The notes beneath the pieces are model-generated. The model had not been told where the DNA came from and did no database searches. It saw nothing but the letters and a program-made list of their open reading frames with translations. A DNA stretch of 34,887 nt from Craspedostauros australis (Eukaryota), in contig JALAGF010001367.1 of the NCBI GenBank assembly GCA_030167865.1, positions 1 through 34,887 of the forward strand, written 5' to 3'. Position numbers and translations under genes: made by a program. Positions within the stretch are counted from its first letter, which is position 1. Each line of letters starts with the position of its first letter. Below, piece after piece: positions 4,500 to 33,243 of this stretch.

Positions 4500-7400
4500 C
4501 TACTTCCGTCTGCGCTTGCTAGATTTCGCATCAGCGTTGTCCTTGTACGAATCCCTGCCGCGTTGCTTTTTGCTGCTCTTCTTGTCGGCATTCGCAACCT
4601 CCTCGCCTCCAGGAACATCTGTCGCACTAGCTGACAACGTGAACAGCGCCGGTGCCACCAGATCGATCTTCAGGTCCTTCTGGCCGTCTTGGATTTCTTT
4701 GGCGTAGATCCTGACTCTGACCTTATCAAAAACCTGGATGGACTCTTCCTTGCCATCTCGCCGGATTGCTATTGTGTGCCTTTCGTCATCCTTCGTGTAG
4801 GAGATATCTGGGTGGGTGTCGCCATCGGCACTGCGAGCAGTTGGAAGCTGGGTGCGTCCTTCAATGCCGTACCGCGGGATTATGATGCTCATTGTCGGCG
4901 AATCATGCACATCTCCCATGTCGATGTCCAGCACGTAGGCGTCCTCAACCTTGGCGCCGTCATCGCCCGAGAAGAAGATGAGAGTGTGAAGCTGAACACT
5001 GGAGCGCCCGGCCAGCTGTGCGGATCGATGGCGGCGGTTCATGTTTTCGCAAAGATCGTGCATGTAAGACTTGGACGATAGATGGGCTGGCAACGGCGCG
5101 ACGTTGATCGCAGCCGCAAGCAGGCGATGGACACAGACATCCGCATACCTGGCGATGCCCGTGAGTTCAGTTTGGCAGAATGGATCAAGATTTTGAATGT
5201 GTACGGCATGGTAGTTTAGGGATTGGTGGTGAGAGGTGAGCGTACATACCATGCAATTGCAGGATAGATGTGGACGTGGGTGCGGATACAGATGGCAAGG
5301 TTAGACGTGATGCAGCACGTGGAACAACATCGTGTCATGACTTGCGGTGTATGTATAATTCGCAAACAAAGAGTGCATGACTTACCTGCGGATAGGGGAT
5401 GTGAAGTGAGTGTACACAGGCGCCGCAAGGCCGTAATGATGCCAATCCGTGGCGCGGTACTCTCCCGAGCAAAAGTACTGCGCCGGCGACATGCACCGAG
5501 TTGACAAGATCCGGAGGAGCTTGTTGAAGTACGGTTCAGACTCGATCACCGCGTCGTCCAGTGAGTCGGCGAGCTGCTTTGAATCTTCGATCTTGATCTC
5601 GAATCCGCGGGAACGTGCCTTGCTGATCAAGGTTTGGAACATCGCTCTGTTCGGCGACGGGTGGCGTCGCAGGACCGATAGAGTCGGGTACGATCGTAAA
5701 ATCTTCTTTGCCACCGTCACGTTGGCGAGCAGCATGAATTCCTCCACCAGCGCGTTGGCCTCGAGCAGCTGGTACGATTGCACGTCGGTCGGGTTGAGGG
5801 ATTCGCTGTCCAGCACAAACTTGACCTCCGGCGATGCCAACGTCAGCGCACCGGCGTCGATCCTTCGTTTGCGAAACTGCCTCGCCAGTTTGGCCAGGCG
5901 CTTGACAGATGATTCCTTCAGACCGTCATCCTTCTCTGGCTGATCGATCATGCTCTGCGCTTGCTGATACGTCAGCGCCGCAACAGAATGGATGATGGAT
6001 TTCTTGAATTCCACATCGACGATCTGCGCATCTGGTGTCACCTCCCATATCACGGAAAAGGCGTATCTGCGGTGGACGATGATGCAAATGGCATGTACAG
6101 ATACATACGTGCGTTGGAGGTAGAAGCGCATGTTACCAGAGGAATAAAGGAATAGTTAAAGTGAATGGATAGAACGGCGCCACGGCGTGGTGTGAGTTGG
6201 GTTATTGAAGGCAAAAAGGATCTTGAGATGCAATAAAGCACGCTGCAGTAGCATACTATGGAACAGAGTAGAACCCACAGTAGAACAAAGCTGCATCCAC
6301 GCAATGCTCATATGAACCTACAAACGAAACAGGACGACGCATGATTCCAGGACACCTGCGATGTAGCATAGGACACGACGAGGCACCATCACTCACCTGT
6401 CGACGTTGCCCTTCAAACTGCACAAGTCGGTCGTCAGAAGGGCCGGCAGCATATCCAAACGCCGATTGACCAGGTACGTCGACGTCGATCTGCTGGCCGC
6501 CTCCAGATCGATGGCCGTGCCCGGCTTGACGTAATGCGTGACGTCGGCAATGTGCACGCCCAGCGAGTAGTTGCCATTGTCGAGCTGCGTGCAGTGCAGG
6601 GCGTCGTCAATATCCTTGCAGCCCGGCGGGTCGATGGACATGACGGGGATGTGACGCAGGTCCGTGCGATCCGGCGTGGGCACGAACTTGAAATCGGCTG
6701 GTGGCAGGCATGCCAGGACGGCCGCCGAGAATGGTTCGTGGGGGATGGCATGCTGCAGCAGCAGCACCTGCGTCTCGACGTCCTTGGATCCGATGGGGCC
6801 CAGCAGCTTGGTGTAATGGCCCAGCGGGTAGTGCGAGTCGGCGGGCCACGAGTCGATCGTGACGAGGATGCGTTGGCCGACGAGACGCTGCTTCTGGGAT
6901 GTGCGGATGAGGATGGTCGGTATCTTCTTGTCGACGGGGAAGAAGACGCAGGTCGTGGTACCGTCGGGATGCTGGCGTTCGTGCGTCTCTACGATCTTGC
7001 GACGTTCGGGTGAGATCTTGCCATTCTTTTCGCTGCCGCTGCAGATGGAGCCGCAGTAGCTGCCGAAGTTGCGCCGCATGATGCCCGCGATCTTTCCCGT
7101 GGGACACATGGCCTTGCCGTCCTGCGATGTCTGCGCGACATCCGAGACGTTGGAAAGCTCGGCCTGGGTGGGCTCGGCCGTGTCGGGCGCGATGCCAGCC
7201 TGCAAGGGAGCTTTTGTGGATGATGCACTATTCGATTTGGCTTTGGACTTGGCCGTTGGCGACGACAGCCACTGATCGGGCGAGTGCAGCGCCACGGCCA
7301 CCACATCACCATCGAGGGCGCGGTTGCGATCCATTCTGCCCCGGATGGAGACCACGACGCGCTCGTCGCCCTTGCGGATGGTGATGCGGCCGTTGGTGTC

Positions 7401-8270
7401 GTCGAGCGAACGAAAGACGGCGCGGTACAGCGTGCCCGATTTGACACCGTCCGAAATGTCGGAAGCAGGCAGGTGGCGGGGAAAGCAGTTCTTGCGCGCC
7501 TCGCCGGTGCTGCCCACCTGCGCTTCGAAGTTGGCGACGGTATCGAGCAACGACAGATCGGGGTGGTGCTTCTCGAGCTCTTGCGCCCAGCTGCGCACGC
7601 TCCTGGCCTCGTACAGGGCCCCGTCGGCCTTCTCCCGGCTTCCTTTGTCGTCCGTCAGGAGGATGACGCGCACGTCGCTGCCGGTGAGGTTTTCCGCAAA
7701 CAACGCGGCCACATGACGAATGCGGGCATCGTTCTCGTCGTTGATGCTGGTCCTATCGGCCTCGGCAACGTGCGCCGTTTCCACATGATGCTGATCGGCG
7801 AGGAAGACGCAGAAGCGAGGGTTGTTCTCCACCTCCCGCATCATCCTCGCCACGCGCTCGTAGGCCGCGCTGCTGTTGGATCGCAGCTCGAGCAGGGCGG
7901 TCTGCACGAAGACCACGTTGGGCATGACCGTGTCCGTCATCTCCAGCAGATCGAGGTTGTGGATGAGGACGTTGGTGTCGCAGACCACGAGAGCGTTGGG
8001 CTTGCAGGGACGCAGCATGGACAGCAGGTGCGGCGCATCGCGGATCAGCCGCGGCCTGCCGATCCTGGCCTCCTTCACGCGCAGGTTCTCGTCGTTGCTC
8101 GATTCGTAGTAGTACCCCAGGCCCAGATCGTCGCGCAGGTATCTCTCGGATACGTTCTTCAGGATCTTTCCCTTCTTCCGCGTTTGGCGGTAGAAGAATG
8201 GCCGTTCGTACAGCGATGGGGCCTTGGAGATCCCATGGTCCATCTCCGTGCTGCTGTGTTCGACGTCCAT
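4500..8270 (-). CDS. DIS3: Exosome catalytic subunit DIS3/RRP44 (PIN endonuclease + RNB exonuclease), 3 exons: 8270-6397, 6066-5386, 5148-4500 (about 1067 aa)
   Basis: PIN motifs (VVCDTNVLI, NDENDARIR, ILLTDD), RNB catalytic motif SIDPPGCKDIDDALH, VHIADV, LVEEFMLLAN, HYGLAAPVYTHFTSPIRR|YAD. Phase-2 GT-AG introns 6396-6067 (GTGAGT) and 5385-5149 (GTAAGT) join the three ORFs in frame (3204 nt). Confidence 0.96.
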
Positions 8271-8314
8271 CGTGCAGTGGCGTACAGTGGCGTACAGTGG
8301 CGTTCAGTGGCGTG
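8271..8314. repeat. 10-bp tandem repeat (CAGTGGCGTN) about x4 immediately upstream of the DIS3 ATG
   Basis: cgtgcagtgg cgtacagtgg cgtacagtgg cgttcagtgg cgtg. Confidence 0.85.
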
Positions 8315-10637: not shown

Positions 10638-11673
10638 TTACTGGAAGTAGAACTGCACCTGCTTGTTCGTGAGCTTGCCGTAAACAGAGGAGAAAGTGTC
10701 AGTTCGTCCCTCAACATTGGCCTGGTCCTTGGAGTCAAGGTAGACCTTGAGGATGCGCTTTCCGTCAACCTTAACGCGTGTTCTCTTGCCGACAATCTCA
10801 GTTGGGTAGACGATGTCGTCCAAGATGGAGTCATGGACAGCGGTGAGGGTGCGCGATCGTGGGAGGAGTCCGGTGGTCTTCTGGTTTCTGGAGTAGGACT
10901 TTCCGAGGATTGTGCGCTGTGCGATGATCAGGACGTGACGTCCGGAGAACTTCTTCTCCAGTTCTCTCACAAGCTTTGGGTGGACCTTGTTGAAGGCCTT
11001 CAGCAGTTTGAAAGGAACATATAGAACAATGGCCTTGTTGCCACCTCCGCAGTCAACCTCCTTGGCAGCTGTGATGTACATATCACGGAGAGCAGCCTTC
11101 AACTCGGTGGATGTCATCTCCAAGTTGAGGAGCTCCTGTGCGACGGAGGCCTCGAACTCATCGGGCTCCTGCGGAAACCATGCGTGTTGTGTCGTGTCAT
11201 GTCATGATGCGGTGTGACGCGTGGCGTCCAGATCAAGGCCGAAGAAGTCAAGTAGCAAGGCAGAAAGCGTTTTGGTTTGGTCAGTCAGCATGTGTGTTTC
11301 ATTCGTCTTGAAGCAATCCTCTCTTGTTTTTGCTGAACACTCAAGGTCAGGATCGCAGGCTCCCTTGTGAAAAGCACGTCTCCGAGTGGAAAAATCAACT
11401 TCAACAGTTCATCTCTTGCGGGGCTGCGATTCCTTCGTGGTCTTTCGCACGGCGTTGTCGGTAGATCGGCGCCGATGTCAGTGGTGGCGGCAGTGGTGAT
11501 GCCATGGCGACACGGCACATCGTCTGGCGCCGATCTGCTTCCAACAAGAGCTCCGGACCATCCCAGAGACTCAAAACCTCCATCTTCCCGTCACTTCGCT
11601 TCGCGCTCCGCATGCTCCTGTCACCATCTTGATGACTTACTCCACTGCTCTTGCGGATCTTCTGAAGGCTCAT
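10638..11673 (-). CDS. RPS7: 40S ribosomal protein S7 (eS7), 2 exons: 11673-11641, 11168-10638 (187 aa)
   Basis: LVRELEKKFSGRHV, PRSRTLTAVHDSILDDIVYPTEIVGKRTRV. Exon 1 MSLQKIRKSSG|GTAAGT and acceptor CAG|GAGCCCGATGAG (EPDEFE) flank a 472-bp phase-0 intron. Confidence 0.97.
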
Positions 11674-17438: not shown

Positions 17439-18599
17439 ATGACCCCATTCAGGATACGATAGTATACAAATGCGGATTTTTAATATTTTTTCTTAAATAG
17501 TCCTATTATGTTGTAGATAGTATATGGGTGAAGTTACAAGCTTCTGGGCCTTGTAGTTAAAAAGTTTATATTTTTCGCATTAATCTACGGCTAGACACGT
17601 GAGGCATGCGAACGTAGAGGGGCAACTTGGATTCGAAATTCTCAGTCGTGCTTTGGCCAATGTCCAGTCGTGTCCTTCGTCGACACACTCACATTTCGCG
17701 TGGGTGAGGCGGGTTGTTGCGAAACAATGTCGAGGATTGCGCAGTGGCAGTAGGCATGCTGAAGTTGCTGCTTCATCTGGGCCGTGGATCAGTTGTCGAG
17801 ATCCAGAGTTGTGGGTTGGTGTGTAATCCAAATCCTGACCCCCCACCAAGACTGTCACACTGCCTTGTTCTCGGTTCCCCCACCGCTCATGGCCCAGGAC
17901 ATTGAGCTTCGTCCACGTCCCAATCAGCACACACTGCCTTCCCTCCATACGCCTACTCTATTACAGCCTCATCCTTGCTTCAGGTCTATTCCCTGCCTGT
18001 GTGTTTGGACCTCCTCTCTGCTGGTCGTCGCGAACAGTCATTGTTGGCTTCTGGCTGTTGTTCATCTGCTCTCCTCTCAATTTCTTGTTTCAGTGTCAGT
18101 GAACCTGCAAACACTCACATCACAACACCATAAACAACAAGAAAACAACACTACCGCCACCAGTCTCTTTCCACACCATGCCAATGGCTTAGTAGATGGC
18201 CATGGCGTCCCATGTCCATGGGAGCAAAGCAGGTTCAGCAGGACTTTGTATTTACAAACAAACCTAAGTGTTCAACAAAATTATATTTTGCATACCAAAG
18301 GATAAGTCACTGTGCTCCATTGCACTATACATATAACTCATGGATTAAGTTGATTAGTGTGTGCCCAGCCTGCGCTGGAGGCTTTTTTACACCGCCCGCT
18401 TTTATCTCGTGTAGGGCACAAGGCAGAACGGCTATCGAGTCAATATGTATGCATGCTCAGGGGATCACGACAGCCTCCACCTATCCTGCTCTCCACTCTT
18501 TGCGGCTCTCTGGTAATATGTAAGGTGTATGTATTTGTGTACTCACGCAGGGAAATCCAGGGACAGCCTTGTTCACGATGGCCAGCTACCGCCATCGGT

Positions 18600-20870
18600 G
18601 GAGCCAAGTTCGGACTTCAACAGGAACTTATTGCCTGGTATCTGCAGCACTCGGTGCACTTGTCCAAACCATATTGCGACCGTTCCCATAGCTGTGGATC
18701 CTTTGCCTGACATCTGCAGTCAGGCCCACACAGCCATGCTTGCCCCTTGTAGTTGCGCTGCATCTTGCAGGGTGGAGCTGTAGTCTTGCACCACCTGCCT
18801 CATGTGAGCCTCTGGCCCCTCATCAGTGCGATGCATCTCCTGATTGTGTTGGTGCCAATGCTCCCACACCACTTTCCAGAGCTTGCGCACAATTCGTGCC
18901 GCCCACCTTGCTGTGAACAGCCTGCGACCGATTTGCGCATAGTACTGCTCCTGTAACTTGGTCTATGACCTCACGATCACACCTGTGACCAGCCAATCCC
19001 ATCCCACCTCCTGTTGATTGTCCATCAGCTTTGTCTCAGCCCGGTTTGCGCATATGTGTCCAACAGGTCCCAGCCCTCTCAACACTTGCTTGACATTGCT
19101 CAACTGTATTTTTGCAATGGTAGGATGAGTCGGCATCTTCTGCATTGTGCTTCTCAGCCGTTTCTGCTGCACTTTCCAAAACGCCATCGATTCCGGTGAG
19201 CAGCAGGCCCAGAGGTGGCCATGAGTTTCCATCTCGCTGCACCTGGGGCAGCTGTCACTCGTCCTCGCCTTCCACTGAACCATCCGGATTCCCACAGCCA
19301 CCTCCTGTATTGTGAGCTCCATGATGAGCACCCTCTGTGTATTGGTGAGCTCGCCTGCCACCCGTCATTGCGCACTTTTGTTGGCATCACCACCAATCAC
19401 CTCCATGCCTCGCTTGCGCCTGACCCTCACCATGTCCGCCTCCACCACATCTCTGACAACCCTGGCATATGTGATGCTTGACCTGTGAATGCCTTGTCTT
19501 GCAATGTGCCACGATCACGTCCCTGTGTTCTGGTGAGAGCTCCATGCATCGCCCTCTTCGAGCATTCGCCATCGCTGTACCGCGAGCCGATCGGTAATGA
19601 CATTCATACACTCCCACACATCAAGTTCATCAGGCTTCTTGTGTTCGTCCTGTTGCCCATGCACGTGTCGTCCCACAAATGTTATACTCAGCTGGCTTCG
19701 GACCCTCATGGCAGCCACCATCATGTCGTGACCAGGACTTGCCAGATCCAATTAATGTACCCACTCCAGTACCTTCAGGGCTTGCAGGTTGTCACAGCTT
19801 CAGCGCCCCCATCCGCCTTGTATTCCAAACCTCTCCTCCATTTCCCAAACCGTCATCAGTGCACCGTAGATTCCCGCCAACTCCGCTCGCTGGGACGATG
19901 TCAGGTCCTCCCTCCGTGGAGCCTCAAAGGTTCCAAACACCATCACCTCCAGAGTCTCATCAATGGCCATCGCCCATGCCGCCATTCCCTTGTCATTTCT
20001 GCCAGACCCGTCACTTCTGCCAACCGCCGTCTCTTCTCATATACTCTGGGCCATATCTCCAGTCGACCTCGCATCTGATGTGTTTCACAGCCCACAACTT
20101 GGCCTCGCCAAGATCCTCCCAGACACTCTCCATCCCCTGGGAATCTGCCACCGTGGTATCATCCCATTCGCCAACTGTCAGCATCCATATGCCATCTCCT
20201 TGCCTGTAGCCATCCACAGGGACCCTTCTCCATTCCTCACCACTGCTGGCACCTGCCAACACAGCTTCCTTCTTGACTTCATCAGAACCTCCCTCCATTC
20301 CATCCATCCATCGCCATGGACCTGAAGCCTCCCAGTTTGCTCATTCTACCTCATGGAGGTCGCACTGCCTGCCCTGCTCCACTTGCCCAGCCGTAAACAA
20401 TCCTGAAGCATGCTATTCTGACCCAGCATCTCCTTGAGCTTGGACCTCCATGTTGCCCAATACGCTTGCTTGAGCCGCCCAACTCCAGGCACGTTCACTT
20501 CACTGGCTTCCACCATCGCTCCATCATCTTCAAGGACCGCCTTCAGAATGCCTGTTCCGTCCGCCGTAACAATCTCAGACATCCAGAACAACTTCATTGA
20601 CCTTTGACACAGATTCACTTGTCGCATTTCCTCCCTGTTGCACAGCTCCGCAATGGTTTTCATTATTGGGCGATCACCCTGCCTCCTCGGTTGTATCAGA
20701 TCCTCCACCATTCGCACTTCCAGCTGTGCTGCAGATGCTTATTTGGCCACACTTGCCCACCACGACTGTGGAACCACCATTGACCACTTGCTTCCTACCG
20801 CCTGGAAGATTCGCATTGTACCTGCACTTGTCGCCACGGCCTGGTAGGATGCTCGCAGGAGCCTCCACCA
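18600..20870 (-). pseudogene. Disrupted C-terminal part of ORF2 (post-RT region, RNase H, zinc knuckle) of the degenerate element
   Basis: Motif matches listed for the element, spread over several frames. Boundaries are approximate. Confidence 0.85.
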
Positions 20871-22287
20871 TGCATTGCTTCATGACCGACTTGATAGGCT
20901 TGTCGAGCGCCGTCCCTTTTCGACTGGTGTGCGTCGTGAACGAGTATGCACTTTTGTCGTCAAGCGCCAGCAGTCGAAATGACGATCCTTCCACCACTTC
21001 GAGTCCTTTGATCTTGACATCCAGAAATTCGTCTGCCACCATCAACATCAATTCGATCTGGAGCACCACGTACTTCCCGGTCTCCTCGTCGTACTGCACC
21101 TGATGCACCTTGGCTTGCTCAGTCGGAGTGAACCAGTTCGCGCTGGTGGCTCCCACTTCCCACGTGCACCTTGCTGCCAGGGTGTTTACGATCCCCTCTG
21201 CCCTCACCAGATGCTCTGGGAACATGTATGCGTAGGCGGTGTCGGTCTCGCCATTCCAGGGCACCTCCTGCTTGTCAATGTGGATAAACACCGGCCTCTT
21301 TGTGATCAGATGCACCTGATTGGCAAGGTTCGATCTCAGTGGTTCCTTGGATCCGTCGTGTCCAGCTCATCAAATTGTTTGACCCCTCTGATCGACACTT
21401 CCACCATCCTTCCCATTTCCGCTTTGCGTTTCTGTAGCATCTTTGTGGCTGCCACTCCATCTGGGCCCAACGTCATTGCCATTGGATGGGGGATGAATCT
21501 GTTGCAGAGTTCTCCTGACCCAATCTTGGAGATGTCATCGAACATCTCGCAGAAGATTTTGGCGATTCTCACATGGATGCGGATGTCAGCTTCAAGCCTG
21601 AGAGCTTGCCAAGGTTGCACCTTGAAACTCCTCCCCATAGCTTTATGAGCATCTCGCCATTCCTGGCTGATCATTCCGTCCGCCCTGACTCTTCCCCCAA
21701 CTTTGCCGTCGACTCCTGCAGCCTTCAGACGCTTGTTGATGATGGCACATATAGCAGGTCCATTGGAAAAGTTCCCCATGTAGGTGAGCATTCCAATTTG
21801 CTTTGTGTACTCCACTTCATCCAGCAGTCTCTTTTACAGAGTCTGTCGAGTTGACTGGTAGAAGAAACTCAGCTGCGATCCTGACTTTGACACGATGCCC
21901 TTTGGATCACATGTCATAGCAATACGCACTTGTGCCACCACCGTTCGACCATTCAATGTTGCCTTCGTTGTGCTCATGTACACCATCAGCTCCTTCTCAG
22001 TCGTTGGGAATTGGTTGGCATTGCCAATCGCCTTGTTGGCGTCTTGTACCTTCCACACCATGAGAAAAATCGTGTCATCATGATCCTTGAGCGCCCCTAG
22101 CCATTCTTAAGTGGCTTCAGATACCTCTTCTCTGGATTGCCGCCTGATATGACTGGTACTGTCAAGTCAAATCTCTTCGCTACCATGCCTTTCTTCAGTG
22201 TATGCGTGGTCTTGCTCTCCACGGATGCATTGCTATCACTGGCTTCATCCGATTTTGCACTGCTTGTGCTCCCTGTTAGAGCACTAT

Positions 22288-22454
22288 CAAAAAATCATGA
22301 GGGGAGAGCAAAAGCAAAGTACCATGCCAGGATTCGAACCAGGAACCTCAGTTAGAATTACTGGTGCTCCACTGTTGAGCTACAGGCGATGCGATTGCTG
22401 ATCCGAACACAAGTGAAATTTATAGATAGTGGGGGCTACGGGAGTAACGTACTT
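22288..22454 (-). mobile_element. 167-bp insertion carrying a tRNA-like Pol III cassette, flanked by 8-bp TSD AGCACTAT (22280-22287, 22455-22462)
   Basis: Removing the insert plus one repeat restores ORF1 (…KPNSA|LTGSTSSAKSDEASDS…KRFDLTVPV). Confidence 0.8.
22320..22389 (-). pseudogene. tRNA-like sequence (degenerate; anticodon loop resembles Arg-TCT)
   Basis: Minus strand: TCGCCTG TAGCTCAACAGTGGAGC ACCAGTAATTCTAACTG AGGTT CCTGGTTCGAATCCTGG CATGGTA. It has a box A-like motif and a perfect box B (GGTTCGAATCC), but a mismatched acceptor stem and a non-canonical anticodon loop. Confidence 0.75.
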
Positions 22455-24651
22455 AGCACTATTCGGTTTTGTGCTGATACTCCCTTCACTCTTGCTTGAC
22501 TTTTCATCCTTGTCAGACTCCTCACTCTCACTACTTGTGTTGTGCTCCATCGTCTTTGCCAAATGCTGTCCCTCCACCTCTCTCACAGTTGGTGTGATGG
22601 TCATGAATTTGATTTTCTTCTGCTTGAGCTTTCTTGGTTGGACAATGTTGCTATCTCTCGTCTTTCCCTTCTTGCCACTCCCTTCTGCGGTTGTGCTCAT
22701 CATGCTGCTTTCGGCTTCCCCCACTACCGCATCTTTGCCTTGGGTAACAAACTTGATGTCTGGGTACCATGACCCCAACACGTTCACAGCCGCTCTCCAT
22801 GCAATGGTGATCTCAGTCTTCCTCAGGAGCCCTCCTGAATTGGGAATCATCATGTCTTTCAGCACCATGTTTGGATCTGTCATGCTCAAGTCAGCAGCGA
22901 GTTGTTGGATCTGCTGTCGTCGTTCATCTGTTTTGGGCACTTGCGCCACACCAAATTTCTTTTCTTCCATCAATAGCCATGCTGATGAACACCTGCACTT
23001 CCTGCACCAGGATGGTGTTTCCTGTTTTGCAGTTGCCTTCCTGGTCCACCTGTATCGTTGATTCATCATCCCTTTCACCAGGATATGGATTGACCTGCCT
23101 TCCTCTGCCGTCACTTCACGGTAGGAGAACAAAACAGCCACCTTGCGGATTTCTCCTGGCAGAGATTTCCACATGCTTGTCGTTGTCCTGTGCGCAGTGG
23201 AGACTCTTTCCTTGTTTTCTCCTTCCACAAGTGTCAGCATCTTATCCCGTTTCTTGCTCCCAGCCTTCTGTGGCATGGTCTTGACAGCCCTTGTTTGTGA
23301 CTGTCCTCCTCCACGTATGCCGTTGGCAGTCTCCTTATGATTTACCATCGCTTTGCCTGCCATTGTTGCTGCTGTTGGCCTCACTTCTGTATCTTTTCTA
23401 TGGTTGACACCCGTTGACGTCGGTGCTGTTTCGGTGTTTGCATTCATTTTTGTACTATCTTTACGTGTTTCTACTGTTTTTGTTTTCCTGGTCCCTGGTC
23501 TTATGCTCCATTACACAATATTGTACTATATGATATTATATGATATTATATTATGTTGTGTCATATTCGCAAGTGTTGCTATTGCCGTGAACGTGGAAGT
23601 GGACGTGTAGGGATGCCACCACCAACACCGTGCTGTTTGACATCCCACGCACAAAGGAGGTAACGCACACCAGAGCCAAACCATCGACAACACAAGGAAT
23701 GAACGTAGCGCTGAACCTTTCACAACATCACCATCGAGGCCGCTGGATACCATCTCAGTCTGGCATCGACCGTCGATGACGTCACCATTTTCGTCCACAA
23801 TGAGGACAAGCCAGCCATGTATTTGTGTCGTAAAAGCTAGCTAAATATATCTAACCCTAATGGACAAGACGGAAAATTGATGTCTAAAAATATCACGTTT
23901 CAGTATCTCAAATCCGCAGAATAATACTCGACTTCGCTGAATGGGGCCGTATGTAAACAGAAACGTGAATGTGAATCCGTGCGTGAGTCATCATCACAAA
24001 CATCACAATTCGAGACTGAACAGGCATTGCGAGGTGATCATGTTGTCGGTCAAGCGAGCAACGTGACATTGGATGCCCACAACAATGTCCTCGAACTGGA
24101 GTGTCCTCTGTACCAATGCGAGATTCTGGACCGTGCACTCGTGCGTGCGACTAATCCACAACGCCGATGCCAACACCAACCCACGACTACTCGCACAACT
24201 CTCCGGAGAGGGAGAGCACCATACGTCACACTCAGGTGGAGAACTGAGGAAGCGCAGACGCATCCACGCCAACATCATGAGGGCTTCTCGTGATGGAATC
24301 AATAAGGAGGAGAGCGAAGCAAGCAACTCGTTGTGTGTGTTCCGAAAGGAACCAAGGCAGTCCACAATCGTTTGTGATTTGGAGTCGCCTCTGCCGCATG
24401 CAACAAACTTGCGAGAAGCGAGTACTTGGCGAGGCGACGGCCTCGTCACCATCTCACAGAGCCCAGAGCGAATGACGCAATCAATTGTGTTTGGGCTCTC
24501 CTCATCATTGGTTTGCAAGAGAGAAGCCACGAGAGTTGCTACCACCAGCACAATCAGAGAAGTTTTGCACGCGACGAGATCGTGGTGCAGAGCACAACAT
24601 AAGGCTATAGAAATTCTAAATCAAGCAGCTCAGCAGCATTGCTGTCACAAA

Positions 24652-24723
24652 GTCTGCATCGTATAGTGGCTAGTACCTCACATTGTGGTTGTGAAAGGCT
24701 GGGTTCGATTCCCAGTGCGGACA
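24652..24723 (+). tRNA. tRNA-His (GTG)
   Basis: Full cloverleaf: GTCTGCA/TGCGGAC acceptor, TCACA-TTGTGGT-TGTGA anticodon arm, CTGGG-TTCGATT-CCCAG T arm, discriminator A. No encoded G-1 (A at 24651), as is usual for eukaryotic tRNA-His. Confidence 0.95.
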
Positions 24724-24856: not shown

Positions 24857-24872
24857 TGACGGCAAAACAAGA
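24857..24872. repeat. Target-site duplication, left copy (TGACGGCAAAACAAGA)
   Basis: Identical to 33228-33243. Confidence 0.93.
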
Positions 24873-25009
24873 ATAAATAAATAACACAATGATTAAACCC
24901 TCTTATGAGGCTGCGCCGGTGGCGCTTTTCTCCGCCTCCTTTCAACTTCGCGCAGGGCGCGAAGGGAGCACGGAATCTGTGTATCGTTTCATGTAAAATG
25001 TAGTCGTTG

Positions 25010-28000
25010 CTATCCACCCTCCGTGGAGCCACCAGGGCCGTAGCCAGGGTCTGGATGAGCTTGCCTGCGATAACGTAGCCACGTGAGCAGGGCGCCAGAG
25101 GCGGCCGGTTCACGCAGTATCATGGCGGCTTGCTCCACCCACACCGCGACCTGTGCTGTGGTAGCCCCTTCCGCCGGCTGAGACAACAGAATGCGTCGAT
25201 TGGCTGCCTGATCTTCCTCGAGGCGAAGCCGAAGTGATGCCGCTCGATTTTCCAGAGCTTGGATCATTTCGGCCTCGGCCGAGTCTTGACTGTGAAAAAG
25301 TTCGTCGTTGCGCACAGTCCACTGCTCCCACGCGATGTGCCAGATACGCCGCACCAGTTGTCTTGCCCACTTCGCTGCTGACCTTCGCGATTGCTGCTGC
25401 CGCAAGTACTCCTCCTGCATGCTTTCCCAGTGAGTGACGATTAGCCCCTTCCGGAGGGACTGGTGCCCCACTGCGAGCTGATGTTGAATAGCCTCATGGA
25501 GCATGCTCCCCGGGCTGGCTATTTGGAGATAAGCTGAGTTGTCGAACTGGCTGCGAAGGATGACAGAAATACTTGCCGCCACCGCAGGATGGGTTGGATA
25601 TCTCTGAAGCCACCTTCGAATATCGCTCAGAAGACGATGAGCCACTTCGCGCCTGCCACCGCTGGGACACTGCCAGAAATGCTTGGCGTCCTCACTTGCT
25701 GCGCATCCCGGACATTGGTCCGACAATCGCATTCCCCAGCGTTTCATGCGCTTTCCCAGAGGAGCCTCACCAGTGATCAGCTTGGTGATGAGCACCCTCT
25801 TCGGCTGGCCGATCTGCTTAAGCACGCGGCCTATGGTCGGCCACGCCACGTGGGATGCGTCATCGATCGCCCGCCGAGAAATAAGGACGTTGACAGCCTC
25901 CTGTTGAGTGCGCTCTCCGGCCACCGCCGAGTAGTTTACTTGCGTCAGTTTTGCCGTTGCCATGAACGAGACTCGCTCCCCGCGTATATGGCCGTCGTAG
26001 GCTGTTGTGCCAAGCATAGAGCTTCTCGCCGCTCCTGCCACCTTGTCTGCGATCACGTTCAGTCGGGCCCATCTGTCCAGTCTATGCCACTCCGTTTTGT
26101 TGTCTTGATGCCCTTTCACATGTCTCCCTCGAATCGTGATTGGTAGGTCTTCGCAGCTGTTGCGAACCGCCCTCAGCAGGTCTGCATCTGTGGAGGAAGG
26201 CGACAACCGCCACTCTTTGTCCAGGGCTTTCAGAGCACCAACATTGTCGCAACCGATCTCAGCGCTGCCGCCATCAACGCCATGCACTTCACAGATCACT
26301 GCCAGCATCGTCAGAACTCCGTAGAGTCCCGAGAGTTCCGCCCTGTGCGACTGCATGACCCCGTTTGTTGCTGGGGCGAGATTTGCGATGATCAGTTGCG
26401 CTGTCTCACCGCCGTATTCCGCCAGTATGACCGCCCCTGAGGCTCCGCTGCCGTCTGCTACTGAGCCGTCGCTGCACGCCACCGCAGTCCCCTGCCTTAT
26501 GGATTGGGCCACCGTGTCCCAGGACCCCGCTATTTCGTACTGTTGGACTGACCAAGATTGCGTACGCTGCATGGCTTGAATGGCCATCTCCACAGAGGTC
26601 GGACTTCTGGGTTCTGCGGTCATTCCCTCGCTTGCTCCTGTCACTACGATCTTTCCCGAATGGCGGTAACCGTCCACGAGCTTTGCGGGATTACACTCTT
26701 CTCCTTCGATTTCTGCGTAGAGTCTGCGCCTACTGCGCCGAGGTATTCTGGCGAACACCTTCGAGGGCTGCGACTTGTCGTGCAGTCTGTCACTCGCTGG
26801 GTCCCAAAATACTAATGGCTGCTGCGATGTGAATCCTCGCCACTGCCCAAGGTGCTGCTCCAGTTGAACGCTTCCGGTTCTGGACGCTGGGAAAATCCTC
26901 CGAATGACCTGTTGCCACGCTTTCCAGCTGGCTGAACTCAACTTCCCCACTGGAGGCCAATTGAGACATGTGGCCCGTAGTGGGACGTCGCCAGGCTGGT
27001 CGGCCGATGGCAATAGATGATCGCCGCCCACTGACACTATATCCGACAGCCAGAACACTTTCTTGGCGATCCGACACAAGTTGATGATCTTTTCCTGCTG
27101 CGGACCGAGCGCTAGGGCTTTAACGCGCACCATGATTGGCGCATCATTTTGTCTGGGGGCATGCAGTATCCTGCTCTCCCACTGCACTGTGATGCCCACC
27201 CCGCTTGTCTCCATCCACAACGACTTCATCCAAGAGTCCTCGGCCAAGTGTCCCCACTGGCTTGGATCCTGTTGGAACACGTCTGGAACTCCAACCTGTA
27301 TCGTAAGAAGCTCCACCAACGTGTGCATGAGCTTTCCTGTCAGCGTTGACCTCTGCCAATGGCGCGCCACACTCTCAAGATGTCTTGTGATCTGCACGTA
27401 GTACAGATGTTCCACTCCAAGTCCCAGACCTTCACTTGGCCCGAACACCAGTTGGCGAGACACATTTCGTTGAACTCCGGCCGCCGGCAGGGCTGCCATA
27501 AGGACTGGTCGCATGATGCGTTCGGTGGCTTCTCTCGTGAACGTCGCACTTGTCAATGGATATTCTAGAGCCTTCCATATTGTCGATTTCATGGCGATCC
27601 ACGCGTGCGTTCGTAACATGCGTCCTCTCCTCATCTTGTCTGCCCACTGCTCGGCCTTGCTTGCGTAGTACTCCTCATTGTCCTTCTGTACTCCATCGTG
27701 CCTGACCATGACTCCAAGCGCCTTCCTAGCTTGGTCGACTCGAAGTCGCAGTAGCGTGGACCTGTCCTGGCTGTCTGGCTGGCGGATGTTGATGTCGCCT
27801 GGTTGCTCTTCGATCGTTTTGTATTTCCATCCGGCGCCTTCCCACTTGAATGACATAAGGTACCAGTAACTCTTCCGGGGTTCGAGAGCTCCGCCTGTAG
27901 CACGCAGCATCCCTTCCCACGCGTCCACCACTTGTTGGATCTCCCTGACGCACTCTTCTGGATCATTGACGTCCGACTGTACCGAGTGGATCAGATCCGT

Positions 28001-30538
28001 GTCATCCACAAACGAGAAACATACCAGCTTTGTGGACACTTGCTTGGTTGGACTGACGGCCTTGAATCCGAATCCTCTTGCTGTCATTGCTGCCATGATC
28101 GGAGAACTCATTGCCACCCAACCTGCCGGGGATATGCCTAGTCCTTGTAGTAGGCCTTGCAATTTGGATCCACGGTGAGGGTAAGTTCTTGTGGACCTTC
28201 CAAAACCCGTCAGCACATGGTGCTGCATGGACTGCACTGCCGATGTTACACTTTCCCCCACGACTTCGGGCACACCCAGTCGCCGCATGCTGAGTTCCAG
28301 GGGAACATGCGCCATTCTGTCGTAACAGCTTTTCGCATCGTTTGAGCATATGCAGCTGGTGGCCGCCGTGATCCTGATGATGTCGTCCGTCATTCTGTTG
28401 TTGAGACTGACTTCTGCCGCGCTTCGCTGCTTGCGGCTGCCGTACTGTTCTTCCGGCAGCATCTGGTGTGTCTCCGCGTGTTTCATCATGATCTTACCGA
28501 TCCACTTGAGATTAGCGTTGAAATCTCCTTCCACCAAGCTGATGGTGCGGAACCTGGAAACTCGGAAATTTCCTGGCTCCTTTAGTAAGGTGACATCGGT
28601 GCACTTCAGCCATCGCTTCAAATTATACCCCGTCCTCAGAGACACCTCTCTCATGATCGCGTCGATGTTTGCGAGATCATCACACTTGGCATTCGCCTTC
28701 CACAGCCCAAAATGGAGGCCGGATGGACCCGACGTAGTCTTCTCCCTCGCTTTGGACCACAGTTGCTGGTGGCTGGACGTGGTGATGTGAAGATCTTCGG
28801 CCTTCCATGGTATTGCGCCAGTTTTGCCGAGTTCATCGAGAAGATGGTTGTCGTGCTGGCCGAGCTTGCGATGATGCCTGCGCTGGGCGGATTGTATACT
28901 CATGTTCCGTATGTCTCGAGCGAAGGTGGGATGCTGGAGCGGGGTCACGTACGCTTGCCTGTATTTTGCCTCGTTCGCTTTCATGCATTGGGTGATGACT
29001 GTTTGTTCTTTGTCGTACACTTCCTCTTCGCCACTTTCGTTATTGGCGATAACCATCGTCACCTTGCTGTTGGAATCGTAGTCCCCCATCACCTGTCTTA
29101 TGGCGCGGAAGGTTTCCACTACTTCTTCTCTTTTCTGTATGGAGACGAGAGCGGACTCCGCGGATATATTGCCCGCTTTGGCTTCCTCGTCTGCTCGTTG
29201 TTGCAGGAAAGTGGCCCGATGTTTCTGCGCGTCCTTTTTTGCCTTCTTCCATTTTTCATGCGCTCTCTTTCGTTTCTTGTCCAGATCCTCTTTACTGAGA
29301 GTGGCTGTGCGGGTTGAGATACCTGCCTGCTTTTTTGCTCTTTCATACCAACGGGAACTCACTTTCGTGCCTCCACGTCGCTTCCACGCCAAGTTCCAGA
29401 ACTGCTTCTCCATGGCTCTCTTTTTGACTTCCGGAGAGAATGGCACCTTTCCCATGTGTATAGTCCTGGCTTTCTTCTCGGCTGCCAACATGATGTGCGT
29501 GCGGTCGCTGTCGATGGATTCCATTCGTTCCACTTGGCCCGGAGTGAGCGCTTTTGATGATTCGATCTCCTCCCTTAGACTCTCAACCCGTCTCTGCATG
29601 TTCACCCGCCTGTATTGTTTTCTGACTTCTGTCTGGTACCGCTTGACCGTGATGGGCCTGTTCAGACGCACTCTTCTGCCTTCGAATTTGCTGGTGGGCC
29701 GACTCGTTGTGCCAAAGACCGAGTCTTGGGCTACCTCTATCCATGCTGTGCGATGATCCCAGGGACCAAATTCACTGTATCCTGAGCGCACGATTTGTAG
29801 AGACGCCGGCACCCAGATGCCATCGATGACCCTGTCTGTGCTTGCTCTTACGTTGGTAGACACTCCTGGGCCCGTCGGATGTCGGCTGAGGATCGCTTCT
29901 TTCATGTGTAGCCTCGCCATCATGTTGGCCATCTGAGAACGATTCACCGGCATGTTGATGTCGCCGCCCACTATCACTGTTTCTTCTGCTTCCTTCCACT
30001 GTCGAATCGACTCCTCGAGATCTTGAATCAGTTGCGAAATGGGTGGTGTGTGTATACCCTGCGACTCTAGCCAGGAGGCCTGCTGGTTATGGACTGTTCC
30101 CGCGCTTTGTCCTCCTTTATTTGGAATGTACACGCTGACGAATCTGATAGTCGTATCGCGTTTACCTCTGATCGCCATGCTTGCCCATCTGCCGAGCTTA
30201 CGCGGATCATTGGCCCTGCTTTTGTACCTTCCTGTGATATTTCCCGTCATGGTACAGGCTGTGCCGCCCCACTGTCTCAGGCTGCCCAGCTGTTCTCTCT
30301 CGTTATACGACAGAGAGTGTCGTTCCGTGTAGACGTGCTTCTTAGTCCTTGATTTCCATGAATTCATTCGTCCGATCTTGGACCAATTGACTCCTATTTC
30401 TGAGAGGAGAGCAACGTCGATCTTCTGCTGCTTGACCCATTGCCACAGGTCATCGTTTTTCCAGTGTTTCGACTCAGCCTGGAGACATCCCACGTTCAGA
30501 GCGGCTATTCGTATCATAGTGCCGCCTTTGGTGAACAT
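25010..30538 (-). CDS. Retrotransposon ORF2 polyprotein: APE endonuclease, reverse transcriptase, RNase H, C-terminal CCHC knuckle
   Basis: APE: IRIAALNV, DVALLSE, VSVYIP, VGGDIN, IDGIW, WDHR. RT: FRTISL, QYGSRK, SNDAKSCYD, LLQGLGISP, SFVDDT. RNase H: ACSDGS, RAELSG, GCDN, HVKGHQD, NVIAD. Knuckle: CPGC-x8(approx)-HFWQC. Confidence 0.96.
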   Translation of the reverse strand: MFTKGGTMIRIAALNVGCLQAESKHWKNDDLWQWVKQQKIDVALLSEIGVNWSKIGRMNSWKSRTKKHVYTERHSLSYNEREQLGSLRQWGGTACTMTGNITGRYKSRANDPRKLGRWASMAIRGKRDTTIRFVSVYIPNKGGQSAGTVHNQQASWLESQGIHTPPISQLIQDLEESIRQWKEAEETVIVGGDINMPVNRSQMANMMARLHMKEAILSRHPTGPGVSTNVRASTDRVIDGIWVPASLQIVRSGYSEFGPWDHRTAWIEVAQDSVFGTTSRPTSKFEGRRVRLNRPITVKRYQTEVRKQYRRVNMQRRVESLREEIESSKALTPGQVERMESIDSDRTHIMLAAEKKARTIHMGKVPFSPEVKKRAMEKQFWNLAWKRRGGTKVSSRWYERAKKQAGISTRTATLSKEDLDKKRKRAHEKWKKAKKDAQKHRATFLQQRADEEAKAGNISAESALVSIQKREEVVETFRAIRQVMGDYDSNSKVTMVIANNESGEEEVYDKEQTVITQCMKANEAKYRQAYVTPLQHPTFARDIRNMSIQSAQRRHHRKLGQHDNHLLDELGKTGAIPWKAEDLHITTSSHQQLWSKAREKTTSGPSGLHFGLWKANAKCDDLANIDAIMREVSLRTGYNLKRWLKCTDVTLLKEPGNFRVSRFRTISLVEGDFNANLKWIGKIMMKHAETHQMLPEEQYGSRKQRSAAEVSLNNRMTDDIIRITAATSCICSNDAKSCYDRMAHVPLELSMRRLGVPEVVGESVTSAVQSMQHHVLTGFGRSTRTYPHRGSKLQGLLQGLGISPAGWVAMSSPIMAAMTARGFGFKAVSPTKQVSTKLVCFSFVDDTDLIHSVQSDVNDPEECVREIQQVVDAWEGMLRATGGALEPRKSYWYLMSFKWEGAGWKYKTIEEQPGDINIRQPDSQDRSTLLRLRVDQARKALGVMVRHDGVQKDNEEYYASKAEQWADKMRRGRMLRTHAWIAMKSTIWKALEYPLTSATFTREATERIMRPVLMAALPAAGVQRNVSRQLVFGPSEGLGLGVEHLYYVQITRHLESVARHWQRSTLTGKLMHTLVELLTIQVGVPDVFQQDPSQWGHLAEDSWMKSLWMETSGVGITVQWESRILHAPRQNDAPIMVRVKALALGPQQEKIINLCRIAKKVFWLSDIVSVGGDHLLPSADQPGDVPLRATCLNWPPVGKLSSASWKAWQQVIRRIFPASRTGSVQLEQHLGQWRGFTSQQPLVFWDPASDRLHDKSQPSKVFARIPRRSRRRLYAEIEGEECNPAKLVDGYRHSGKIVVTGASEGMTAEPRSPTSVEMAIQAMQRTQSWSVQQYEIAGSWDTVAQSIRQGTAVACSDGSVADGSGASGAVILAEYGGETAQLIIANLAPATNGVMQSHRAELSGLYGVLTMLAVICEVHGVDGGSAEIGCDNVGALKALDKEWRLSPSSTDADLLRAVRNSCEDLPITIRGRHVKGHQDNKTEWHRLDRWARLNVIADKVAGAARSSMLGTTAYDGHIRGERVSFMATAKLTQVNYSAVAGERTQQEAVNVLISRRAIDDASHVAWPTIGRVLKQIGQPKRVLITKLITGEAPLGKRMKRWGMRLSDQCPGCAASEDAKHFWQCPSGGRREVAHRLLSDIRRWLQRYPTHPAVAASISVILRSQFDNSAYLQIASPGSMLHEAIQHQLAVGHQSLRKGLIVTHWESMQEEYLRQQQSRRSAAKWARQLVRRIWHIAWEQWTVRNDELFHSQDSAEAEMIQALENRAASLRLRLEEDQAANRRILLSQPAEGATTAQVAVWVEQAAMILREPAASGALLTWLRYRRQAHPDPGYGPGGSTEGG

Positions 30539-30656
30539 AGAGTCTCCCCAGCCCTTGTCGAGGAGGTCCGGCCCTTCTCGGCGCCTTTCCTCCGGGGTTG
30601 CATCTGTTAGGCTTGCGGGGGTGGTTGACGATGCTTCGCCTGCCCCCAGCCTGTCA

Positions 30657-33102
30657 TTATTCTTGGTCCTCGCCCCCGCCTTTGCTTGGAGCGGGTGGCT
30701 GGACTTCGGACGCCGCGAGTTGGGCGCGCAAGGCCGCGATGATGGTTTCCTGACTGGCTATCGTGTTCTTTTGTTCTTGCACTCGAACACGACTCGCCTC
30801 CAATTCCTGAGCTTCTCTGGCCATTCGCATGGCTTCCTCCAGTTCTGCTTCGATCGCTTCTCTCTCATCTGCTGCTGTTTGTGACTCTGGAATTGTGTAT
30901 CTAGATGATGCTTCTGATTTCCCATACTCCGTTCCAAAGGTCTTGTAGCTTTCGTCTTCCAGTCGTGCCTTCTTGCGCTTTGGTGCTTCGTCGTCCGCTT
31001 CCATGATGTTGATTCCTTCGATGACTACATTGCCGAATCCTTCATCCAAGAGAAAGTCCATCTCTTCTTCGGTCTCTACGTCCACGTATTCTCCGTTTGT
31101 GTCTTTGATCATGTTGCTGCTCATGGCCACGATGTCTTCAGAAAACCACTTGTTGGTGGACTCGTTGATCTCCGAGGAGCATCTGATCCCGATGGTGTGG
31201 ATCAATCCCACCGCTTGTGCATATCGCTCTTCGAATGCAACGATGTGGATTGCGTCCTCCTTCCCGTCCGACATGTGTGTTGTGCTGACGTCGTGGATCA
31301 TTGGACATCCGTCAATGGTTTGGTTGGCGAGGAATTCCCGAAGCGTGATTGTCTGGGTCTCTGGGTCTTTCACGTCCAGTGCGAAGTCGCCCTTGAGCTG
31401 CTCGTACTTGAGCCGGCGGACGTAGCTTTGATGCTTGCGGGTCATCGCCTGCACCTTCGCGGCTGTCTTTGCCCCCATCACTGATGTCCCTGGCTTTGGG
31501 ACATACCTGTAGTTGAGTCCACCTTGATCGCCTTCTTTTGTATTGAAGATCTTTCCCAATAGTTTGGAGGCCCTTCGAGCATCTTTGACATCTGCATGAA
31601 GATGCAGGGCCATCCACGGGGCGTTGTACCAACTTCCGCCTAGTTGAAGATGTTGCTCCTTCACTTCTTCTGACACCTTCCCCATGTACTTCACCCTTCC
31701 TCCGACTTTGAGTTTCGCGCGTTTGCCTTCCAGCAGCCGATTGATGATCGCGAGAGCCTGTTTTGGTTTGGTGAAGTTTCCTGAGTACGCCATGAATCCA
31801 ATCTCCGTTGTGTGTTCTGCATCCTTGAGATCTTGAATGTATGAGTATTCACCTTCAAGATAGGCGCCCTCGAGCTCCGTGTTCCAGCTCGTGAACATTT
31901 GCATGTCCATGTTCGATGATAGGAGCACCTGGAGATATACATCCTCGCTCTTTGACGTTGGGTTGGCTCTACCAATGAAGTACCGAAGATCTTTCCATGC
32001 TGCGGGAATGTCATCCGCCGTGACTATGCAGCCTTTGGCTTTGTTCTTCTTGTACCAAGGGCTGATGATCAAGCTTTTGTCCATCCCCAGAGCTTCTTCA
32101 TACCACAATCGAAAGCGCTCCTGGAAGTCTCTGACCGGCGTTTTGGATCCTTTGGGAATCTTCAATCTCATTTCGAACCGCTCGTAGTATCTTCGCTTGG
32201 GACTTGACATCTGTGGGACAGGTTTCTTCTGCAAGATGGTCCAACCTTCGCCTTCGTCGTTGTTGCCACGTGTTTGACTCTCTTTGGTGGTTGGAGCTCG
32301 TGCAGCTTTGAGGTTACCTGCTGCGTCCCGCGGGGCTGGTGATGTGATTCTTGTTGCTGTTGTGTAGGCTGTGAGGTTGGCTTGCTTCAGAGGCTTCTTC
32401 GTCATGAGGGCTTCCAGATCATAACTTTCGTCATCACTGTCCACCTTTGTCTTCTCGTTGTCAGAATCGACTTCCGGCGGAGCTTGCTCGTCCATGTATT
32501 GGCAGCCCATGTAGTTCGTTGCCGCTGCCCATAGAATGGTCATCTGATTAGCTGCCATGGTCTTGTTGCCGGGCTTGAGGGCGTCTGCAAAGCATCGGAT
32601 GGGATTTGTGAGAGACAGGTCTGCCACGAGTTGTTTGATGGCAACTCGTGCCGGATCATCCGAAGTCACTTTTGTTTTCCCCAACTTGGTTGTGCGCCCG
32701 TCCATCACCGTCTGAAAAAAAGCCTGTCATCTCGCTTATGGTTGGCATGTGCGCCGACACCATTGATGTGTCGCTTTTCTCCCACCTCGCTTTCATGACC
32801 AGGGTCTTCTTCGTCTGGTTATGCAGTGCTCTGTCCTCTTCTCCATACGTCTCGTCTGGCCGAAAGGCTTTGGCTTGTTGAATGATGGTGTCATGAAGCT
32901 TCTTCCACCGCGCAGTGTTCGGGTCTTTCCACGTCGTCGCTATTTCCCCTCTTTTCTCCATCGCCTCTTCTTCGATTGCTCTCGGATTTGGCTTGGGAGG
33001 CGGCTTTGGAGCTGCTGTCTGCACAGCTTGTCCTTGCTCGTCCATCATCTCAACGTCGTCGGCTTTGTCGTCTGCGATTCTAACATGTTTGATTGCCTTC
33101 AT
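30657..33102 (-). CDS. Retrotransposon ORF1 (about 814 aa if fused), split into 33102-32656 and 32708-30657 by a +1 shift at a T7 run (32715-32721)
   Basis: Removing one T gives …MTGFFQTVMDGRTTKLG… continuous. The degenerate copy reads through the equivalent region in one ORF. The C-terminus has a coiled-coil-like E/A/R-rich segment. Confidence 0.82.
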
Positions 33103-33227
33103 GGTCGTGTCGGTATCTTTCGTGTCACGTAGAATTTGCTGTAGTTTGAGTACTGATTTTTGTTGATGTGTTTCTTTTTTGTGTTTATCTAGTGTTATCG
33201 TTTGTTTTGTTTTTTCGGGTTCTGGTA

Positions 33228-33243
33228 TGACGGCAAAACAAGA
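33228..33243. repeat. Target-site duplication, right copy (TGACGGCAAAACAAGA)
   Basis: Identical to 24857-24872. Confidence 0.93.

Follow-up and report, generated by a model that had tools for sequence, protein, structure and literature searches.

A short insert with an RNA polymerase III gene layout and candidate splice sites in a decayed retrotransposon of the diatom Craspedostauros australis

A stretch of 34,887 nt from the raphid pennate diatom Craspedostauros australis (assembly GCA_030167865.1, contig JALAGF010001367.1, positions 1 to 34,887 of the forward strand; the whole stretch is referred to as the window) contains a 167-bp insert on the minus strand, which entered open reading frame 1 (ORF1) of a decayed non-LTR retrotransposon and is flanked by an 8-bp target-site duplication. 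The insertion with its duplication is confirmed. Judged from its motifs, the insert is laid out as a full gene for RNA polymerase III (Pol III), the predicted product of which is unable to be a tRNA. With a probability of roughly 40 %, it belongs with the introners (mobile intron-like elements) as a short mobile unit that is non-autonomous and would (i) bring its own 5' splice site, (ii) co-opt the 3' splice site from the duplication, and (iii) contain, or derive from, a Pol III-type tRNA-like gene.

Insertion into ORF1 of a non-LTR retrotransposon

The insertion involves the following features, two of them being the host (element 2) and an intact relative (element 1):

18322–23503, minus strand: element 2, decayed non-LTR retrotransposon, recognized by ORF1 homology to element 1
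24873–33227, minus strand: element 1, full-length non-LTR retrotransposon with an ORF2 of 1915 codons and a 16-bp duplication
22455–22462, minus strand: upstream copy of the target-site duplication (in minus-strand sense), from repeat comparison
22288–22454, minus strand: insert of 167 bp, present once in the window, without terminal inverted repeats (TIR), from repeat and inverted-repeat searches
22280–22287, minus strand: downstream copy of the target-site duplication, containing the AG (22285–22284) of the candidate 3' splice site, from repeat comparison

The two copies of the direct repeat AGCACTAT are identical in all positions (8/8) and directly border the insert. With the insert present, the minus-strand frame opening at 23510 encounters a stop within the insert at 22380. 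Excision of the insert together with one repeat copy (175 bp) brings the frame into phase and extends it by 63 codons to a stop near 22096; only one of the three frames is open downstream of the insert, and this is the in-phase one. The serine- and acid-rich composition of the ORF1 linker reaches the repeats on both flanks, stopping and resuming exactly there. Since the 62 residues encoded past the insert share no significant homology with ORF1 of element 1 (E 22), the restored frame rests on phase and composition.

The identity of the host is evident from ORF1 of element 1 (P0003), residues 14–79 of which match 22958–22758 on one side of the insert (E 9e-8) and residues 216–600 of which match 22079–20929 on the other (E 3e-28). 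Element 1 contains no insert-like segment between these two blocks. The portion of ORF1 that precedes the insert (P0002) found no match among proteins of 191–611 amino acids; a library of 1.84 billion representatives yielded only two remote matches to it (E 1e-5 and 4e-4, residues 102–262) and no sister copy.

Repeat and frame alone are weak evidence, because direct repeats of 8 nt at distances of 108–408 bp form 355 pairs in the window, and frame-extending excisions are found at four places (5 pairs) besides the insert, one of them spanning a DIS3 intron and another located at an ORF1/ORF2 overlap. Based on these counts and on the abundance of AGCAC/GTGCT words in the host linker, one could suppose that no insertion took place, i.e., that an 8-mer recurs by chance because the coding region is of low complexity, and that the extension of the frame is accidental as well. 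This is hardly credible, since a tRNA-like Pol III unit cannot belong to ORF1, and neither the exact break and return of serine-rich coding composition at the repeats nor the absence of such a segment from the intact relative would be accounted for. The insertion is called because the foreign content is located exactly between the repeats.

The AGCAC/GTGCT words of the linker raise the local background of short repeats. A further direct repeat of 7 nt (TTGTGCT) is present just beyond the duplication on both sides (22264–22270 and 22469–22475).

No TIR of the insert were found, the inverted pairs present being internal and not located at both ends. The window harbours no second copy. A metagenome scan with a 22-mer spanning T-arm and trailer retrieved one locus with 23 nt in common in unrelated DNA, i.e., a chance match, and four 22–23-mer patterns of the insert had no match in a virus collection. 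The RNA fold predicted for the insert is not better than that of shuffled sequences (z -0.76).

An earlier note on this DNA had proposed a 167-bp insert between 8-bp repeats in a retrotransposon ORF1, devoid of TIR and thus at odds with a miniature inverted-repeat transposable element (MITE). The exact coordinates (22288–22454 within the AGCACTAT copies), the homology to ORF1 of the intact neighbour (E 3e-28) and the purely internal inverted pairs agree with all of this. That excision restores ORF1 likewise holds, the gain amounting to the above 63 codons instead of the about 55 estimated earlier.

Pol III layout and tRNA-like body

Numbered from tRNA position 1 at 22389 on the minus strand, the insert comprises the following elements:

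22418–22424, minus strand: TATAAAT at -35 to -29 of the tRNA-like body, occurring once in the window (both strands)
22395–22397, minus strand: CAA at -8 to -6, assigned by motif position
22320–22389, minus strand: tRNA-like body with box A (22382–22369) and box B (22340–22330), from the RF00005 match and stem pairing
22289–22313, minus strand: T4 (22313–22310) and T6 (22294–22289), candidate Pol III terminators and/or polypyrimidine tract

The shorter motif TATAAA occurs twice in the 69,774 strand positions of the window (both strands), once within the insert. The body is followed by T3, T4 and T6 runs, and the insert ends 1 nt past the last of these (final T6-G); runs of at least six T give 12 matches in the same 69,774 positions. 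In plant and yeast tRNA genes, TATA is placed at -34 to -29 and CAA at -7 to -3 (PMC3082873), and both motifs of the insert are found at the positions published there.

The body itself is tRNA-like only. Rfam family RF00005 matches 22384–22325 (minus strand) with 24.5 bits as compared to a gathering score of 29, and covers no more than model positions 6–65 (E 0.009 in a search of 551 bp with 4227 families). Base pairing is preserved at 4/7 positions of the acceptor stem, 4/4 of the D stem, 4/5 of the anticodon stem and 4/5 of the T stem. The anticodon loop (AATTCTA) is non-canonical, its positions 33 and 37 being occupied by A and T, respectively. Box A is good and box B agrees with the consensus at 11/11 positions. 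ARAGORN predicted no tRNA in the insert, also with thresholds lowered to 60 %. In the 65-nt leader, neither a second tRNA-like unit nor another RNA family was detected at E values up to 10, apart from sub-threshold noise resembling small nucleolar RNAs.

A true tRNA gene was considered as a candidate and rejected on account of the RF00005 score, the ARAGORN result, the acceptor stem and the anticodon loop. The elements TATAAAT, CAA, box A/box B, TTTT and TTTTTT that the earlier note had listed for the minus strand were all recovered, TATAAAT at the coordinates given there. Its description as a Pol III cassette with a tRNA-like body is accurate with respect to the Pol III-type layout, but does not extend to a tRNA gene, and the capture of such a gene, which it also considered, is not supported by the same tests (24.5 versus 29 bits, no ARAGORN prediction, acceptor 4/7). 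Judged by the layout as a whole, the unit may be transcribed by Pol III.

Intron-like ends

Two candidate features give the ends of the insert an intron-like appearance:

22447–22452, minus strand: GTACGT, candidate 5' splice site, located 2 nt inside the insert; 10 occurrences in 69,774 strand positions
22284–22452, minus strand: candidate GT...AG intron of 169 nt, removable in frame with 6 extra nt remaining and 414 codons open

At the distal end, G-ATAG comes directly after the T6 run, and its AG (22285–22284) lies within the downstream repeat copy. Among 200,000 random placements of inserts of 100–400 bp in the window, 172 display the same combination of donor, acceptor and frame, which is a generous figure in that the criteria were chosen after inspection of the sequence. 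These sites may indicate that the insert is spliced from RNA.

Host element and its intact relative

Both retrotransposons represent long interspersed nuclear elements (LINEs). Element 2 is regarded as defective, since of its ORF2 only the part matching residues 1142–1885 of the element 1 protein remains, residues 1–1141 being missing. The duplication generated by element 2 is probably the 9-bp repeat at 23504–23512 and 18313–18321, which is taken as the border because the first 80 nt and the 3' hairpin-plus-tail are alike in both elements. An internal deletion of ~3.3 kb has removed the last part of ORF1 together with residues 1–1141 of ORF2 (endonuclease and reverse transcriptase), and ORF1 of element 2 has a frameshift near 22096–22079.

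Element 1 is flanked by an exact 16-bp repeat (33228–33243 and 24857–24872); judging by how large the two searched zones are, we estimate that about 2e-4 such matches would be expected between them. The 3' end of element 1 is of the TTAT type, and its 3' untranslated region contains a GC hairpin; neither LINE ends in poly(A). Its ORF2 product shows a weak endonuclease match (Pfam) as well as a reverse-transcriptase region with 272 database relatives (identity up to 47 %), and element 1 is a possible source of reverse transcriptase. A Pfam search with ORF1 matched no family, a sequence search against the PDB returned nothing informative, and the virus collection contained no relative of ORF2.

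ORF1 and ORF2 of element 1 overlap at 30657–30757. The likeness between the ORF1s of both elements extends ~117 nt upstream of the first stop-free codon of the frame (tblastn, 32843–32490), so that ORF1 of element 1 may carry an in-frame stop.

Origin of the insert and route of copying

A unit of the introner kind could have arisen as follows. A single insertion event would have placed the 167-bp unit into the sense strand of ORF1 of a LINE that was already defective. The unit would be a tRNA-derived pseudo-gene of Pol III type (upstream TATA and CAA, intact A and B boxes, decayed cloverleaf, T-run terminators), bringing along the donor GTACGT and ending with the T6 tract, and the duplicated target would supply the acceptor AG, rendering 169 nt removable in frame. 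With respect to copying, LINE machinery may have reverse-transcribed a longer RNA spanning the unit (an intron, either unspliced or excised, or a read-through product of Pol III); with such a template, the promoter would be copied along. If an intron was the template, the position of the insert's two ends would be explained, and the ATAG common to RNA end and target might have served as priming microhomology. An 8-bp duplication is a plausible product of LINE machinery, since the LINEs of the window have no A-tails and duplications of 16 and ~9 bp. The missing A-tail, held against LINE-driven copying in the earlier note, is therefore a weak argument. Alternatively, the unit may have moved by DNA-level transposition through an enzyme of unknown kind, as for many introners. 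Reverse transcription of the longer RNA is slightly favoured over this route.

The position of the 3' boundary 1 nt past a T6 run, runs of this length being rare (12 in 69,774), is also what would be expected from a read-through transcript of a tRNA-derived master gene copied by a LINE, i.e., from a retrocopy resembling a short interspersed nuclear element (SINE); T6 would then be the end of the transcript. Retained A and B boxes in a decayed cloverleaf are typical of SINE heads, the adjoining LINEs, which lack A-tails and differ in the length of their duplications, suit such an event, and SINEs have been reported in a few diatoms, in the accessible parts of the reports by automated annotation only (PMC7466962, PMC8147415). 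The insert is at odds with a classic SINE event, because transcription driven by the promoter within the unit would begin near 22395–22389 and could not include the 65-nt leader: the copy begins 65 nt upstream of position 1, not at the tRNA head, and contains its own promoter, an objection to a standard SINE that the earlier note had also raised. The leader does not offer a second tRNA-like unit as another start (searched at E values up to 10), the tail does not resemble those of the LINEs, and donor, acceptor and frame would all be left to coincidence (172 of 200,000, post hoc). A SINE-like retrocopy is conceivable, yet somewhat unlikely.

The same inclusion of promoter-like DNA within duplicated borders could point to movement at the DNA level, i.e., to a mobile Pol III cassette of an undescribed class or a captured tRNA gene, inserted by a transposase that makes 8-bp duplications; the lack of both A-tail and TIR is compatible with this. 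The boundaries pose a difficulty, as there would be no reason for a cut just past T6 and 2 nt before GTACGT. Moreover, a body that is not a tRNA gene renders recent capture of a working gene unlikely, the window contains neither a transposase partner nor a second copy, and short TIR-less elements making duplications are already described among introners (PMC9860276). We consider a cassette of this kind distinctly unlikely.

The boundary coincidences (T6 and splice donor) would likewise stay unexplained if the insert were no mobile unit at all but a one-off product of repair, with filler DNA from a tRNA-like locus captured either where a break had staggered ends or where a transposon of the 8-bp-duplication type (e.g., hAT) had left its footprint upon excision. 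Perfect repeat copies as present here are unusual for excision footprints, which speaks against such an origin. A repair product would agree with the single copy in the window, with the included promoter DNA and with the duplication length, since hAT and P elements generate duplications of 8 bp, a length that also occurs in rows of the survey's Dataset S2 (PMC12130899). On balance, it is quite improbable.

Several observations weigh against the preferred reading of the insert as a unit of the introner kind with a Pol III-type core. With regard to splicing, the splice sites were recognized post hoc, after inspection of the sequence, and GTACGT plus TAG/T are weaker than GTAAGT plus CAG/G of the intron in the RPS7e gene of the window; the 5' ends of two DIS3 introns, judged by eye, are also stronger. 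The T6 run is counted twice, as terminator and as pyrimidine tract, and the dead host element implies no selection for splicing at this site. With regard to copying, the insert tail is not LINE-like, its similarity to the two LINE tails being reached by 27–30 % of random 16-mers; the specific 3' hairpin and tail shared by both LINEs argue against easy trans mobilisation of foreign RNAs. With regard to mobility, only one copy of the insert is known, from a 34.9-kb window. Finally, the accessible parts of the introner survey list six pennate diatoms with 0 introner families in the genome table; among diatom rows with introner families only Thalassiosira oceanica was found, and Craspedostauros is absent from these files. 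No SINE class was found in the same tables, the sole RepeatClassifier "tRNA" row being finally classed as DIRS. In addition, motifs of the insert had 0 occurrences in the supplementary tables of two introner surveys, a weak negative given that the tables, as far as available, hold metadata.

Significance

The interpretation put forward in the earlier note is partly supported. Compared with a new class, intron-like elements of the known kind (TIR-less and making duplications) describe the insert no less well. Since short TIR-less elements are already known among introners, the "undescribed class" of the earlier note is not required: the 5' donor, the T runs and the AG of the repeat, the splice-site character of which the earlier note had not recognized, place the insert near introners of this type. 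Going further, the insert could represent one member of a mobile-intron family in a raphid pennate diatom, with a tRNA-derived Pol III gene including its own promoter as core, SINE-like in nature, spreading together with splice signals and with the acceptor taken from the 8-bp duplication; as a whole, this extended proposal is rather unlikely. If true, it would link Pol III retroposons with introners in a lineage in which the surveys, in their accessible parts, found no introners. If multiple copies exist, the insert would represent the first SINE-like element to be dissected in a diatom, as diatom SINEs are known, in the parts of the literature available, from automated repeat tables only (PMC7466962, PMC8147415). 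It might then, in addition, be the first introner to have a Pol III gene as its core, and bear on the origin of introns and on the seeding of introns by LINE machinery. If single-copy, it would be a curiosity, i.e., a one-off retrocopy or capture within a dead transposon.

Neighbouring genes

A true tRNA gene in the window allows for local comparison:

24652–24723, plus strand: tRNA-His gene with an upstream A/T-rich block, CAA and T5

In this one gene, the A/T-rich block is located at -46 to -28, CAA at -4 to -2, and T5 eight nt past the 3' end. The gene lies between both LINEs, 150 bp from the 3' end of element 1 (tail to tail) and ~1.1 kb from the 5' end of element 2, a placement which may be accidental or reflect that these two LINEs mildly prefer the vicinity of Pol III genes.

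The ribosomal protein S7e gene (RPS7e, 10638–11673) contains one intron of 472 nt (11640–11169). This intron is verified (GTAAGT...CAG), both exons being 100 % identical to a transcript-derived protein of Craspedostauros australis, in agreement with the diatom origin presumed in the earlier note. A gene for a DIS3/Rrp44 exonuclease with at least two introns is located at 4500–8303.

Comparison with known systems

The closest parallels are found among introners, for which a layout with one splice site from the element and the other from the duplicated target has been described (PMC11282704). Duplications occur in 19 of 40 non-TIR introner families; those of Chrysochromulina have a duplication without TIR and bring their own 5' site while co-opting the one at the 3' end, and those of Aureococcus have an 8-bp duplication and add 12 nt (PMC9860276). 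In Thalassiosira oceanica, six introner families of unknown class are listed, several of them as "carry 5' co-opt 3'" (PMC12130899, Dataset S2). The insert resembles the TIR-less introners of these three algae in its size (~170 bp), duplication, lack of TIR and origin from a marine alga. With the "carry 5'/co-opt 3'" type it would share the internal donor, the acceptor AG in the duplicated target and the few extra in-frame bases, provided that the candidate sites are used. It differs from introners by its tRNA-derived Pol III unit, found in no row or passage of the survey parts at hand, as well as by the single known copy, the candidate status of splicing and a dead retrotransposon instead of a gene as host.

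MITEs and non-autonomous elements of the hAT type are similar in size and 8-bp duplication, but the insert has no TIR. Nuclear tRNA genes of plants and yeast (PMC3082873) share with the insert the TATA at -35 to -29, the CAA at -8 to -6 and the downstream T runs, and the upstream block of the tRNA-His gene in the window is similar as well; in contrast to these genes, the insert fails tRNA detection and has an acceptor stem of 4/7 and a loop with A33 and T37. tRNA-derived SINEs, in turn, correspond to the insert in the tRNA-like core with A and B boxes, the decayed cloverleaf, the flanking duplication and the adjacent LINEs. The insert departs from them by the 65-nt upstream part with TATA and CAA inside the copy, and by a tail that is neither A-rich nor simple-repeat nor LINE-like.

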